A stretch of DNA of 64,000 nt from Minisyncoccota bacterium (GCA_018062765.1 JAGORR010000001.1:442485-506484); one strand, 5' to 3'; positions 58,408-62,877 are shown, counted from the stretch's first letter. Notes: a model not told the origin generated them from the letters alone. Translations and numbers: made by a program.

Positions 58408-58455
58408 CACACACAGCACAAAACCCGGCGCAGGCCGGGTTTTGTGCTGTGTGTG
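58408..58455. other. long perfect hairpin (~22-bp stem) at the outer edge of IR1-L
   Basis: ctcacacacagcacaaaacccggc-gca-gccgggttttgtgctgtgtgtgag. Confidence 0.6.
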
Positions 58456-58746
58456 AGGATGTTCTAACCCATGCGCGAACTCACTTCGCACGCGCGTAGC
58501 GCGTGGTGGCTTGAGATTATTTCGTACGCTCCGATTCCGTGCCAATGCGAACCGCCGCCGCACGCCGCCGAGTACGGCGGCAACCCCGAAAGAAAAACGC
58601 CCTTTCCTTTTTCAAAACGCATTCCCCCCGCCAAACAAAAATGCATGGAGCGGTTTTCTTTCGGGGTTCTGCCCTCCAAGTATTCGGGCAGTGCGGCGGC
58701 GGAAATGCCATGCGGTTCGATTCAGAAAAAGGCGGTTTACAAGCCC
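58452..58746. repeat. inverted repeat IR1, left copy (295 bp, perfect reverse complement of 60886-61180)
   Basis: The ORF track shows identical pseudo-ORFs on opposite strands. Boundaries were mapped base by base. Confidence 0.9.
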
Positions 58747-60821
58747 GGCTCTTCAATTCGCAACCCAACATTGGATATCGCAGATGGTGTGTCGGATTTA
58801 ATACGCTTCACAATGTCGAATGTGTGCGCATCGTACACTTCGACTTCGTTCGCCGACTGTGAGACAACGTACACAAACTTCCCATCATAGGTAAATTCCG
58901 GATGCCACGAACTTTCACCCTTGACCGGAATAATGGTTTTTACAATTTCGTTGATACGCGCGTCGATGACGTATATCTCGTCCTTGTGGTCGCCGAACGC
59001 GGTGTCAGCCCACACGTATGGATATGAAGGATCTTTGCTGTAGCTCCGCACAAAGAGACCTGGTCCGCCAGTCTTTATATACTTCACTGGTTTCCATGTG
59101 GTTATGTCGATGACGGTGATGAGACCCTCGCCGAGAGCCGGAACGTAGATGTACTTCCCCCATGCCGCGCCCGGGCCCGTGTGCGGTGTCTCGCCGGTCT
59201 CCACTTCCGCAATTGGCTTCATTGTCACAAGATCAAGAACCCACGCCGTTTTAGAACCCTGCGATGCGACGATGTAATACGAGCCATCAGGAGTAAGAAA
59301 GCCGTCATGGAGGGCGGGTTTCCCCTCGCCAATGTCAGAGAATTTGTGCGTTACCGGAAACCCGGGTTGATCAGTGTCAATCGCCCAGACACTCGTTCCA
59401 TCCTTTAGTGCCACGACGATACGATTTCCATCTTCGACGACCGCGCCCGCCCGAGACTCGATCTGCTTGCCGTCTTTTTCCATTGTGAGCGGTATCGTTT
59501 TTAGAATCTCCATCGATATAGCATCAAGGATAACAAGATTGCCCGGCTCGTAATTGCCGATAGCAACATACTTATCGTTGTCGGTGATAGCGGTTCCCCG
59601 CGAGTTCTTACCAACCAAGACCGATACGACCGGTTCGAGAGTCGTGAGATCGATCTTCGTAAGCCAACCGTCGCGAGAAATTATGTACATATATTTCCCG
59701 TCCGACGAATAGACGGATGTGTGAGGCTGGAAGCCGACATCATGTACACGCCCGACAGCCTTGTGTGTCGTTCCGTCGATGGCGAGCAATTTCTCCGCGT
59801 CTTTCTCGACGACGAGCATGAGCTCGCGCGGATTCCATGAACCTTCATCGACATACAATTCGCGATACGGCGTGAGTGTCACGTTCTTCTCAAACGGAAC
59901 ATCCACATTCGTCACTCCAGTCCCGCTCCGTAGCTCACCAATGTAATATTTCATCATCTTGTCCCTGATGCCGTCACCGTGATTTTTGTGGTAATTCTCA
60001 CTCACGTCCTTACCGCAGTTGAACATCGCAGGATGCATGCGTGATGCTTCGGTCGCATTGAATACTTTCTTGTCGATGCTGAGCCAGCAATCCTCTGTAT
60101 TGTTGTGAAGCGCGACGTCATCAAGCGTATAGGTCGTACCTACCACTTCGGTAGTTATGCGCTTACCAATCTCTGCGGGCTTGATAATGCGATCAGCCTT
60201 TGCGTACCATGCTCCCGCGAAGATGAGTGCGAAGAAAAGAGCCGCGAGAACTGATCGTTTCAATATCGCGGCATCGTGAGGACGAGCGCTCTTTCGGCGC
60301 ACAAGCCAAGTCGCAAGCATGACAACCGCAACAGTAACCGCGTAAAGCGCCATGAATGCGAAGTAGCCGATATCGGTTCGGTAGATGACATGGTGGAACA
60401 TCAGAAATACCCAAGAGACAGCCGACACTGCTCCGCTCTCAAGAACGAATGCGTCAAGAGCAATGCTCCCATCGCGGATGTCGTGCACACGGGGCAAGTG
60501 GCGCGTAGTGAACATAATTTCATTCCCAATGAGAATCATTGCGACAGTCATGCTCGCGTAAAAAATGCCGAGCTCGACCATCGACTCATACGCAAGCGTA
60601 AAGAGGCCGAGGCCGCTGAATCCATATAAAAGAATTGCGATCCAGATCACTATGCGTGATAGCTTTAGCAAATTGAACTCGTCGCGCGATATTTTTCCGT
60701 CAGTTCCGGAAAAAAGAAAAAGTACAAAACTCAGCGCAGATGCGCCCAGACCGAGGCCGAGAGTAACCGAAAAAATGAGCAGGTACGCAGTATGCAGACC
60801 GATGTACGAGAATAATTCCAT
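58737..60821 (-). CDS. membrane-anchored cytochrome b5-like heme-binding domain + 7/8-bladed beta-propeller (YVTN/cd1-like) protein
   Basis: N-terminal ~5 TM. b5-like HNNTEDCWLSIDKKVFNATEASRMHPA...CGKDVSENYHKNHG. Repeated beta-propeller blades follow. First ATG is at 60821 and TTG at 60839. A TATAAT lies just upstream in the unique spacer. Confidence 0.7.
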   Translation of the reverse strand: MELFSYIGLHTAYLLIFSVTLGLGLGASALSFVLFLFSGTDGKISRDEFNLLKLSRIVIWIAILLYGFSGLGLFTLAYESMVELGIFYASMTVAMILIGNEIMFTTRHLPRVHDIRDGSIALDAFVLESGAVSAVSWVFLMFHHVIYRTDIGYFAFMALYAVTVAVVMLATWLVRRKSARPHDAAILKRSVLAALFFALIFAGAWYAKADRIIKPAEIGKRITTEVVGTTYTLDDVALHNNTEDCWLSIDKKVFNATEASRMHPAMFNCGKDVSENYHKNHGDGIRDKMMKYYIGELRSGTGVTNVDVPFEKNVTLTPYRELYVDEGSWNPRELMLVVEKDAEKLLAIDGTTHKAVGRVHDVGFQPHTSVYSSDGKYMYIISRDGWLTKIDLTTLEPVVSVLVGKNSRGTAITDNDKYVAIGNYEPGNLVILDAISMEILKTIPLTMEKDGKQIESRAGAVVEDGNRIVVALKDGTSVWAIDTDQPGFPVTHKFSDIGEGKPALHDGFLTPDGSYYIVASQGSKTAWVLDLVTMKPIAEVETGETPHTGPGAAWGKYIYVPALGEGLITVIDITTWKPVKYIKTGGPGLFVRSYSKDPSYPYVWADTAFGDHKDEIYVIDARINEIVKTIIPVKGESSWHPEFTYDGKFVYVVSQSANEVEVYDAHTFDIVKRIKSDTPSAISNVGLRIEEPGL

Positions 60822-60885
60822 GACTTTATCATATCTCAAATCGAAGGGAAATTATAGATAAGTGTCTATATGTATGTGGATTTGA

Positions 60886-61180: not shown

Positions 61181-61305
61181 AAAAGAAACTTCGACAGGAT
61201 TCAGTTCGGAACGCAAACCCGCCCAAAGCGGGTTTGCGTTCATTTTGCCGCGGAGTACCGCGGCGTATTCGGATGGTGGGGGGATTCTGAAATGCATGGA
61301 TTTGC
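61176..61305. repeat. inverted repeat IR2, left copy (130 bp), contiguous with IR1-R
   Basis: Reverse complement of 62747-62877 except for a G6 versus C7 homopolymer length difference. Confidence 0.9.
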
Positions 61306-61350
61306 ACCTGTTTCGTATCCACCATAATCATTTCTTTGGTATGCTTAGAA

Positions 61351-62877
61351 ATGATTATGGCGAAACCAAAATATTTTCTCTACGCACGCAAATCAACTGA
61401 ACCTGACGACAAGCAGGTAATGAGTATTCCTGCGCAACTTGTCGAATTGCGAGAATTTGCGGCGAGAGAAAATCTTGAAATCGTCCGCGAGTTTCAAGAG
61501 TCGAAAAGCGCAAAGACGCCGGGACGTGAAGTGTTCGGCGATATGATGATGCGTCTTGAGCGCGGCGAGGCAAGCGGCATAATTGCGTGGCATCCAGATC
61601 GCCTCGCACGAAATAGCATTGACGGCGGGCGCATCATATACGCCGTAGACACTTCCAAAATTGTGTCTTTGCGCTTTCCGACCTTTTGGTTTGAACCCAC
61701 CCCGCAGGGGCTCTTTATGTTGCAGGTGGCGTTCGGCCAAAGTAAATATTATTCCGACAATCTCGCGGAAAATACCCGCCGTGGTATGCGTCAGAAACTG
61801 CGTCGAGGCGAGTGGCTGACCAAAGCTCCCTTTGGCTACACCAACAATCCTAGAACGCGTAATATTGAGCCGGACGCGGTGAAATCGCGCATCATCGTCA
61901 AAGCGTTCGAAGAATACGCCAAAGGGAGCCACACCCTCATTTCACTAGCGCAGTTTCTGGCCGACCACAATGTAGCGACTAAGGCCGGAACGCCACTTGG
62001 CAAAGCTTCCGTAAAGCGAATTTTGACGAACCGCGCATACCTTGGCTTCACCAAACACGCTGACGAGTATTTCCCCGGAAGCTTTGCGCCAATTCTCTCT
62101 CCGCGCCAGTTTGAAGCCGTTCAAAAAATACTTGCGAGCAGAGAACGCAAGCGCAAAATACGCGGCACGCACGATTTTCCCTTCGCCAATCTTTTTTGTT
62201 GCGCGAATTGTGGCGGCATGTTCACGGCACAATGGGCGACCGGGAAATCGGGTGGCCGTTACCGCTACTATCGTTGTACGAAAAAGAAAGGAAATTGTGG
62301 CGCGAAATATTTGCGCGAAGACCTGCTCGCAGGTCAAATCAAGGAACGGCTTCAAACTATCTCGCTTCCCGACAGGTATACCGGCTGGATGCTGAACAAG
62401 GTGGACGAATGGGAACGCGAGGAAACAACTGCGTCGGGAAGCGAGATACAAAATCTTTCTTCAGAGATCAAAGCAAGCGAGGAGCGCATGGACAAACTCG
62501 TTTCAACTTATCTGGATGGCGATATACCGAAAGAGAGTTATCTAAAGCGCAAAGACGCTCTCATGCGCTCTCTCGCCGCTTTGCAAGAGAAAAAGAAAGA
62601 TTTTGAGCGCGGACGAAAGAATTGGGTCGAACCCCTGCGGGAGTGGGTTTTGGATACGAAACAGGCCATGGTTTTGAGTTCGTCCGACGATTTGCACGAA
62701 ATCTCCGATTTCGTTCGCAAAGTCGGAACGAACCCCAATATTGAAAGCAAATCCATGCATTTCAGAATCCCCCCCACCATCCGAATACGCCGCGGTACTC
62801 CGCGGCAAAATGAACGCAAACCCGCTTTGGGCGGGTTTGCGTTCCGAACTGAATCCTGTCGAAGTTTCTTTTTGTGA
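61351..62877 (+). CDS. large serine recombinase (resolvase/invertase catalytic domain + recombinase domain + zinc ribbon)
   Basis: N-terminal YARKSTEPDDKQ with the catalytic Ser. Recombinase domain. Zinc ribbon CCANCGG...YYRCTKKKGNCG. Coiled-coil. The last ~130 nt of the ORF lie inside IR2-R. Confidence 0.85.
   Translation: MIMAKPKYFLYARKSTEPDDKQVMSIPAQLVELREFAARENLEIVREFQESKSAKTPGREVFGDMMMRLERGEASGIIAWHPDRLARNSIDGGRIIYAVDTSKIVSLRFPTFWFEPTPQGLFMLQVAFGQSKYYSDNLAENTRRGMRQKLRRGEWLTKAPFGYTNNPRTRNIEPDAVKSRIIVKAFEEYAKGSHTLISLAQFLADHNVATKAGTPLGKASVKRILTNRAYLGFTKHADEYFPGSFAPILSPRQFEAVQKILASRERKRKIRGTHDFPFANLFCCANCGGMFTAQWATGKSGGRYRYYRCTKKKGNCGAKYLREDLLAGQIKERLQTISLPDRYTGWMLNKVDEWEREETTASGSEIQNLSSEIKASEERMDKLVSTYLDGDIPKESYLKRKDALMRSLAALQEKKKDFERGRKNWVEPLREWVLDTKQAMVLSSSDDLHEISDFVRKVGTNPNIESKSMHFRIPPTIRIRRGTPRQNERKPALGGFAFRTESCRSFFL
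62747..62877. repeat. inverted repeat IR2, right copy (131 bp), overlapping the recombinase 3' end and ending at the tRNA-Glu boundary
   Basis: Base-by-base comparison with 61176-61305. Confidence 0.9.

Follow-up and report, generated by a model that had tools for sequence, protein, structure and literature searches.

The closest described systems are the elements and prophages that move by means of a large serine recombinase (LSR), namely SPbeta (SprA), A118, phiC31 and Bxb1, SCCmec with CcrAB and Tn4451 with TnpX. The same three-domain recombinase is encoded in the DNA studied here, a stretch of 64,000 nucleotides from a Minisyncoccota bacterium (GCA_018062765.1 JAGORR010000001.1:442485-506484; "the window", to whose first letter all coordinates refer unless another contig is named), where it lies with a cargo gene and two long inverted repeats in the interval 58452-62877, next to a tRNA-Glu(CTC) gene. 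We are confident that this interval contains an LSR element that targets tRNA genes, is integrated and has an attP-like site in its interior, and consider it probable that the element carries its attP region twice, in inverted orientation, one of the two copies having been split by integration. Less confidence than in the first of these statements attaches to the details of a circular form and of gene conversion given below. As in the known LSR elements, the junctions have a short core in common and the distal motif is offset between P-type and B-type half-sites, here by 5-6 bp. Unlike those elements, the family represented in the window keeps an intact attP-like site inside the integrated element, has both att arms duplicated as inverted repeats of 100-400 nt and does not conserve the host half-site; it has no recombination directionality factor (RDF), and its target is a tRNA 3' end with which just 3-8 nt are shared.

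Genomic islands at tRNA and tmRNA genes likewise insert at tRNA 3' ends, build up in tandem at one tRNA and carry accessory cargo. In PMC4383910, Islander-type islands are described as using mostly tyrosine integrases and as being bounded by direct repeats of the displaced tRNA fragment. The ends of the element in the window are instead inverted repeats of internal sequence with few tRNA nucleotides shared; it encodes no tyrosine recombinase, and its far end shares only TCACA with the tRNA. Dehalococcoides ssrA islands, a further comparison system of this kind, carry serine recombinases. The serine invertases Hin, Gin, Cin and Pin also have the recombinase gene in or beside a segment flanked by inverted repeats, and the C segment of P1 has inverted repeats of 0.6 kb next to cin, with the crossover sites at the outer repeat borders. 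However, invertases are small (~190 aa) proteins with a C-terminal helix-turn-helix domain that use sites of ~26 bp, whereas the recombinase in the window is of the integrase type, with 506 aa, and its repeats measure 130 and 295 nt; moreover, orientation is nearly fixed in its family and the element is mobile between tRNA genes. Nor does the locus look like a DDE transposon or insertion sequence, since its genes are an LSR and a cargo gene only, and its junctions share a core with no target duplication.

An earlier note on this DNA had reported two long inverted repeats around the cargo and recombinase genes. The longer one was found exactly where that note had placed it, arm a (58452-58746) being the reverse complement of arm a' (60886-61180) over 295 nt with no mismatch. 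The shorter one, of about 130 nt, was likewise confirmed in the 3' end of the recombinase open reading frame (ORF) at the tRNA boundary: it pairs arm b (61176-61305, 130 nt) with arm b' (62747-62877), which reaches 4 nt into tRNA-Glu(CTC), and its sole mismatch is one added C, giving a C7 run in b' (62770-62776, + strand) against G6 in arm b (61278-61283). Other repeats of at least 40 nt were absent from the whole 64-kb window, which excludes chance as the source of a/a' and b/b'. The repeats proved to be adjacent and not nested as had been proposed; a' and b overlap by 5 nt (TCACA, 61176-61180), and the repeat-flanked segments lie side by side, in the order left flank, a, cargo gene (- strand), a', b, recombinase gene (+ strand), b' and tRNA-Glu(CTC) (- strand, 62874-62946). 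The same 5-nt core is present as TGTGA at the end of the left flank (58452-58456) and at the end of b' (62873-62877), where it coincides with the final bases of tRNA-Glu. The C-terminal coding sequence of the recombinase is indeed duplicated upstream of its own start, and both repeats are, as had been remarked, far longer than the hix/gix-type sites of invertases. GC content changes from ~57% outside to ~50% across the element (58600-62800).

This architecture recurs widely in relatives. We gathered 184 loci via four routes, compared each with itself and examined 183 LSR copies. Among 8000 candidates scored from a library of 5.8 billion proteins, 5557 match the LSR; the best 120 matches show 64-93% identity and, where the source gives names, come from Patescibacteria lineages in nearly every case. 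At least 560 matching stretches were present in each of two contig collections. The LSR is flanked by an inverted repeat of 92-178 nt (b/b') in 153 of the 183 copies, so that the tie between repeats and serine recombinase suspected in the earlier note holds across the family. Between the inner end of b and the LSR ATG there is a median of 33 nt, and b' starts at about residue 470, which corresponds to K472, a residue invariant in the recombinase alignment. ARAGORN called a convergent tRNA where b' ends on its outer side at 111 loci and a co-directional tRNA there at none (0 loci); b' reaches 3-8 nt into the tRNA 3' end, and ~14 further loci have a tRNA-like 3' end with no ARAGORN call. The 111 loci make use of 25 tRNA/anticodon types, and a single metagenome-assembled genome can hold copies at different tRNAs.

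Complete elements with both repeats were found at 42 loci, with an arm a of 99-435 nt and a cargo segment of 955-6969 bp. In 41 of them a' overlaps b by 3-13 nt; at the remaining one, L049 (loci are given here by L numbers), the detected arms are separated by 9 nt. Contigs often begin or stop exactly within an arm, and many of ~1.75 kb consist of just b, LSR and b', which makes the family easy to overlook and a systematic source of assembly breaks at tRNA genes in the candidate phyla radiation (CPR). Examples of such arm-terminated contigs are L016, L019, L024, L041, L049, L067, L072, L095 and L096. The literature searched held no account of this architecture or family (a double inverted repeat with a retained attP), and we conclude that these loci represent a large, apparently undescribed family of small tRNA-inserted elements in Patescibacteria. 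The Patescibacteria (CPR) make up a large share of bacterial diversity and their mobile elements are poorly known; here a single recombinase gene moves restriction-modification, toxin-antitoxin and metabolic cargo. Serine integrases are also widely used in genome engineering, for which the family would be a source of many tRNA-directed integrases whose att sites are readable.

The nature of the junctions emerged from aligning all three of them in 30 and then in 82 non-redundant loci. To the left of b lies a conserved arm (consensus cgaAata.gtTcg.gcaaagg.ta..atttca, then the core; also GGTTCG[A/C]GCAAAG...), referred to here as the P arm, which stands ahead of b in nearly every locus having upstream sequence and which in the window forms the outer end of a' (GAGTTCGCGCATGGGTTAGAACATCC, after which comes the core). 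On the right-hand side of the core, b has GAAACTTC at its outer end, and this P' arm begins with AAAAGAAACTTCGAC... in the window. On the tRNA side of the junction the corresponding arm contains the T-loop, GGTTCGA, 18 nt from the core. Only the short core, 3-13 nt in 41 of the 42 complete elements, is common to the three junctions. The distance from GTTCG to the core is 23-24 nt in the element arm (24 in the window) compared with 18 nt in the tRNA arm, and the offset between P arm and tRNA arm amounts to 6 in 60 and to 5 in nine of 71 loci. In large serine integrases, the motif of the zinc-ribbon domain (DBD2) lies 5 bp (4 bp in SPbeta) nearer the centre in attB than in attP (PMC11722253). 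Taking GTTCG as the DBD2 motif, as we infer, the offset matches this reported shift, and a'-b therefore has the form of an intact attP. Judged from sequence, the meeting point of a' and b (61150-61210, + strand) looks like attP, with P arm, core TCACA (61176-61180) and P' arm; the b'-tRNA junction at 62873-62877 looks like attL, in which the B arm of the tRNA is joined to P'; and the junction of left flank and a at 58452-58456 looks like attR, in which P is joined to the host arm B'. Comparison across loci shows the element to be site-specific and integrative, at tRNA 3' ends; the earlier note had not identified the attP-like site at the meeting point of the repeats.

A site that lacks the element is provided by L178 (ERZ27275549 k141_179457), which is 97.6% identical to 62871-64000 of the window, the similarity ending exactly at the core. 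In this contig tRNA-Glu is followed by a terminator hairpin of its own (TCACAAATGCGA...TCGCATTTGTGA, 2135-2183 of the contig), whose first bases are the last five of the tRNA, and by this comparison L178 is an unoccupied site. The left flank of the element in the window also carries a hairpin, with a perfect 24-bp stem (58406-58457), in the host-side B' arm; its last bases are the core TGTGA, which makes TCACA its beginning when it is read on the minus strand. A join of left flank and tRNA would therefore restore the tRNA directly followed by a terminator, and we take this hairpin to be, most likely, the original terminator of tRNA-Glu.

Comparison between elements also shows concerted evolution of the two arms of a repeat. 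The element in L005 has the cargo and the target tRNA of the window element and differs from it by 23% in a and by 22% in b, and yet the a arms within one element are 100% (window) or 99.7% (L005) identical. Moreover, arm a contains a stretch of 57 nt, enclosed by a 15-nt inverted repeat, whose orientation in the window is the opposite of that in L005, and both arms of each element agree in this. Arm a is 75-95% conserved between elements with unrelated cargo. At some loci, arm identity has fallen to 82-92% with the LSR ORF still intact. Gene conversion from arm to arm, ceasing past a divergence threshold, would explain this pattern of identities. The inverted stretch is located at 58582-58668 and 60964-61050 in the window and within 3558-3855 in L005, is bounded by AACCCCGAAAGAAAA/TTTTCTTTCGGGGTT, and holds AAATGCATGGA, a motif present too at the inner end of arm b.

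These observations fit a mobile element of 4.4 kb, with one LSR gene and one cargo gene, whose insertion point is precisely the 3' end of tRNA-Glu(CTC). The 425-bp block formed by a' and b between the two genes would be an intact attP-like site plus its flanks, and the element ends a and b' would be the halves of a second, inverted copy of this block, which recombination with the tRNA would have cut in two at the 5-nt core. Excision would yield a circle with the cargo segment on one side and the recombinase segment on the other, divided by the attP region in two inverted copies. After integration, transcription of both genes would run away from the central copy and stop in the terminal ones, the hairpins of b' would serve as a new terminator for the tRNA, and gene conversion between arms would keep the copies identical. 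Inversion of either segment would be possible but rare and would not be the working function of the repeats. The data show the anatomy and how it is conserved in the family, the targeting of tRNAs, the attP/attB-like geometry, the bias in orientation and the concerted evolution of arms; the circular form, the sites that the LSR would actually recombine and the reason for duplicating attP are what we infer here. Such a circle would resemble the yeast 2-micron plasmid and plastid genomes in having two inverted repeats and two unique segments, with the site inside the repeat, and the linear order a-U1-a'b-U2-b' of the window element is the layout of the herpes simplex virus (HSV) genome. However, 2-micron, plastid and HSV genomes are replicons with equimolar isomers, whereas here one orientation dominates, there is no replication gene and the circle is a reconstruction; the 2-micron topology fits that reconstructed circle only, the balance of isomers is absent across loci and the concerted evolution of arms is present.

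Several points weigh against this reading. Equivalent attP copies in a circle predict integration in both orientations equally, and almost only one is seen; selection, in that centrally placed promoters would be insulated from host transcription, or a mechanistic bias would have to be assumed. Circular forms were not seen, and their junction would be the reverse complement of the internal block and thus unrecognisable. No RDF was found, and with just two genes in the window element excision is unaccounted for, as is the duplication of 100-400 nt rather than 50 nt. The host-side arm B' is not conserved, which is unusual for attB sites of LSRs, and P and P' arms show no evident dyad symmetry. 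A scan of IMG/VR with the LSR alignment detected no relatives. As regards the target, the L178 contig reaches just 49 nt past the tRNA, and a search for an unoccupied left side via the flanking genes led only to contigs that stop in the flank hairpin or carry the element.

Among the alternatives, the one given most weight is an RDF-free cycle. It is conceivable, though we regard it as a minority view, that the mirrored att arms are a required device of a new RDF-free LSR cycle, widespread in Patescibacteria, in which the element keeps a live internal attP and either controls excision with it in cis or alters the C-terminus of its recombinase at every recombination, as the gene spans the crossover site; that the duplicated attP region is an obligatory part of such a non-canonical cycle, and not a passenger, we hold to be rather unlikely. 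Three variants can be formulated: (a) LSR bound to the internal attP unlocks attL and attR in cis, which permits excision; (b) the very end of the LSR, whose ORF spans the core, is rewritten by recombination, and directionality is set in this way; (c) the repeats form folded structures when single-stranded DNA is imported. Neither an RDF nor a shared gene was found among 124 cargo proteins, the window element has two genes, and the boundaries of the repeats are fixed family-wide, all of which would suit such a cycle. The arms are mostly identical and have decayed in displaced or old elements (95% in L121, 85% in L128, 83% in L010), whose LSR ORFs are intact. Ordinary RecA-dependent gene conversion can, however, account for identical arms, and variants (a)-(c) all lack direct support. 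TnpX and Ccr LSRs, which also count against this reading, are reported to be bidirectional with no separate RDF. If the repeats were functional, they would indicate a new way to control the direction of a serine integrase.

Variant (b) draws on the 3' end of the LSR gene. At 128 of 139 loci the ORF remains open through b' and over the core and stops in the antisense strand of the tRNA (for example ...EVSFCDLTGNRTPI), so that the LSR ORF spans the crossover site and integration or excision would alter its last 10-15 residues. A weak codon-position pattern is kept in the first ~22 codons of b' and not in the remainder. Work cited in PMC11722253 concerns an element at the very C-terminus of SprA that affects directionality. 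In the window, however, the added C shifts the frame of the tail and the ORF stops at a TGA inside the core, which suggests that the exact tail sequence may not matter; the frame used by the homologues continues as a window ORF at 62741-62905 that ends ...EVSFCDLTGNRTPI. The C7/G6 difference, a frameshift relative to all homologues, could be a sequencing error, slippage or real decay.

On the RDF-free reading, the retained attP could also recombine with other tRNA genes, for which L066 is the example. At 9801-11625 of this contig an LSR with b/b' arms (94% identical) lies between convergent tRNA-Leu genes (CAA and GAG), with no a' arm, the layout that recombination of an internal attP with a second tRNA would be expected to leave, that is, a chromosomal inversion. 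If the internal attP does recombine with other tRNAs, these elements would drive chromosomal inversions in CPR genomes.

The earlier note had proposed the locus as a candidate double DNA-inversion module, in which the LSR or host homologous recombination would flip the cargo, the recombinase gene or both for phase variation. We consider such a programmed switch improbable. Its topology would permit flipping by either repeat pair, and this part of the proposal stands, with a few loci as candidates; routine inversion does not agree with the data, since orientation is nearly fixed across loci. Whereas 111 loci have the convergent tRNA at b', the tRNA adjoins arm b at only four, three consistent with a flip (the second copy of L169, L006 and L124) and L066. 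Similarly, the LSR and 82% of the cargo coding length (32,846 aa versus 7,363 aa) are on opposite strands. With free flipping, about 50:50 would be expected in each case, and the near-fixed orientation thus speaks against a phase switch. Contigs from different samples with identical LSR proteins (P0030 and P0088) all have the standard orientation, and no circular forms or flipped isomers occur among them.

The candidate loci differ in what they show. The second copy of L169 has the order tRNA, b, truncated LSR, b' and P arm, which is that of a flipped LSR segment. L006 and L124, each with a co-directional tRNA directly upstream of the LSR and a contig end where b' would start, are possibly flipped, and the cargo segment of L160 appears to be flipped. 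The short contigs L122 and L137 end in b' joined to a P arm and are indistinguishable from mis-resolution of the repeat. The few flipped cases look exactly like mis-resolved repeats in short-read assembly and could equally be just that.

Further points bear on the switch. Restriction-modification and defence genes, a class known for phase variation, are frequent as cargo, and P1 Cin acts on a segment with flanking inverted repeats of 0.6 kb. On the other hand, the protein is an integrase-type LSR of 500 aa and not an invertase of 190 aa. The TATAAT that the earlier note had assigned to the cargo gene was found in the unique spacer upstream of it, within a promoter-like site (TCCACA-18-TATAAT, 60880-60851, - strand) that matches the consensus at 10 of 12 positions and is predicted from this match alone. 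As the promoter-like sites are either internal to the segments or placed symmetrically in the two a arms, flipping would switch nothing on or off.

In another scheme, the locus would be two adjacent and independent transposon-like units, b-LSR-b' and a non-autonomous a-cargo-a'. Each is bounded by its own repeat, and L066 has b-LSR-b' alone between two tRNA-Leu genes. We nevertheless think this very unlikely, given that a' abuts b with an overlap of 3-13 nt in 41 of the 42 complete elements, that the conserved P arm stands ahead of b nearly everywhere that upstream sequence exists, and that neither target-site duplications nor a DDE transposase are present; in addition, a serine recombinase acting on inverted ends would invert such a unit and not excise it.

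Assembly artefact, in the form of a chimeric contig or a collapsed repeat, had been kept as an option in the earlier note and is now scarcely credible. Assemblers do struggle with repeats, and many contigs of the family break at the arms. Yet the same architecture recurs with different sequences at more than 150 loci from independent assemblies, different studies and different assemblers, arm identities of 82-95% at some loci cannot come from repeat collapse, and an independent NCBI contig (L181) is 100% identical to 46079-59126 of the window, across the junction of left flank and a and into the cargo gene. Models with fold-back of single strands or with hairpin telomeres were rejected, as with a serine recombinase they would leave a broken or palindromic chromosome.

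The recombinase gene itself (61357-62877, + strand) encodes 506 aa with Resolvase (PF00239, E 2e-22), Recombinase (PF07508, E 8e-12) and Zn_ribbon_recom (PF13408, E 1e-9) domains, and its catalytic motif YARKS is invariant in the recombinase alignment. The start is a TTG at 61336 in the ORF list but the ATG at 61357 in homologues. The nearest named relatives are distant: the SPbeta integrase matches with E 3e-12, the A118 integrase is a further one, and CcrB and XisF fall far below the NCBIfam cut-offs. Identity to any record of the phage or plasmid collections is at most 29%. Exact-sequence look-ups of the cargo and LSR proteins of the window found neither on record. Contigs from the samples SRR11088468/69 show 100% identity to the window.

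The start codon lies within a 14-bp perfect hairpin (61322-61335 paired with 61347-61360; z = -4.2), which together with a promoter-like site, TTTGCA-16-CATAAT, occupies 61301-61360 (+ strand). Compensatory changes in this hairpin are found in L001, L002, L003 and L005. Its loop, TTGGTATGMT, is conserved and looks like an extended -10 element. As a feature of the whole family the hairpin was rejected, being restricted to the subgroup of the window and absent in most other subfamilies. Arm b, the inner end of which lies just ahead of the recombinase promoter-like site, contains, beyond the P' arm, a hairpin with a 14-bp stem followed by ATTTT (61209-61241) and then a second hairpin. In b', one strand encodes the recombinase tail from K472 and the other would provide the trailer and terminator hairpin of tRNA-Glu. 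An Rfam scan of 56-64 kb returned the tRNA only, and the repeat arms match no known RNA family.

Arm a is non-coding: no coding signal was detected in it, and tblastx matches are spread over all six frames. The P arm, in reverse complement, forms the outer end of a, whose inner end covers the final 3 codons and the stop of the cargo gene. Each a arm also contains a 10/12 promoter-like site directed away from the cargo (61087-61116, + strand, and 58545-58516, - strand); one copy faces the recombinase and the other faces, past the flank hairpin, an MFS transporter gene in the left flank. The window contains neither additional copies of the P-arm motif nor further elements.

The cargo gene (58737-60839, - strand) encodes a protein of 700 aa with an N-terminal membrane region, a Cyt-b5 domain (PF00173, E 2e-8) and a cytochrome D1 (cd1-type) beta-propeller (PF02239, E 2e-70). 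The same cargo is present on the homologous elements L002 and L005, that is, in three genomes including that of the window, and, as a membrane-anchored fusion of the two domains, is an unusual mobile redox protein for Patescibacteria. The 124 cargo proteins of the double-repeat elements match 82 Pfam families, which include type II methylases and restriction enzymes (NgoPII, ApaLI, DpnII), SocA antitoxins, LexA-like proteins, HAD hydrolases, an aromatic amino acid lyase, ALAD and the cytochrome D1 protein. Scanning these 124 proteins revealed no family common to all elements besides the LSR and no replication or transfer genes. A conserved motif of ~48 nt is present ~80-140 nt from arm a in the otherwise unrelated cargo segments of L018, L028, L034, L071, L145 and L149; in L160 this motif is reversed.

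Elements also accumulate at single tRNA genes. In L013, L022, L121, L128 and L150, b' of one element adjoins the P arm of another that is nearer the tRNA. Such arrays would be expected if the tRNA half-site is all that a newcomer needs and if it goes in between the tRNA and the element already there. In displaced elements the arms can be decayed, with 95% identity left in L121 and 85% in L128. Tandem arrays comprise two or three elements at one tRNA, L022 having three recombinase genes in 18 kb, with tRNA-Ser 3' pseudo-fragments between its units. In L002, a tRNA 3' fragment lies beside b', and the intact tRNA-Glu follows 150 nt beyond.

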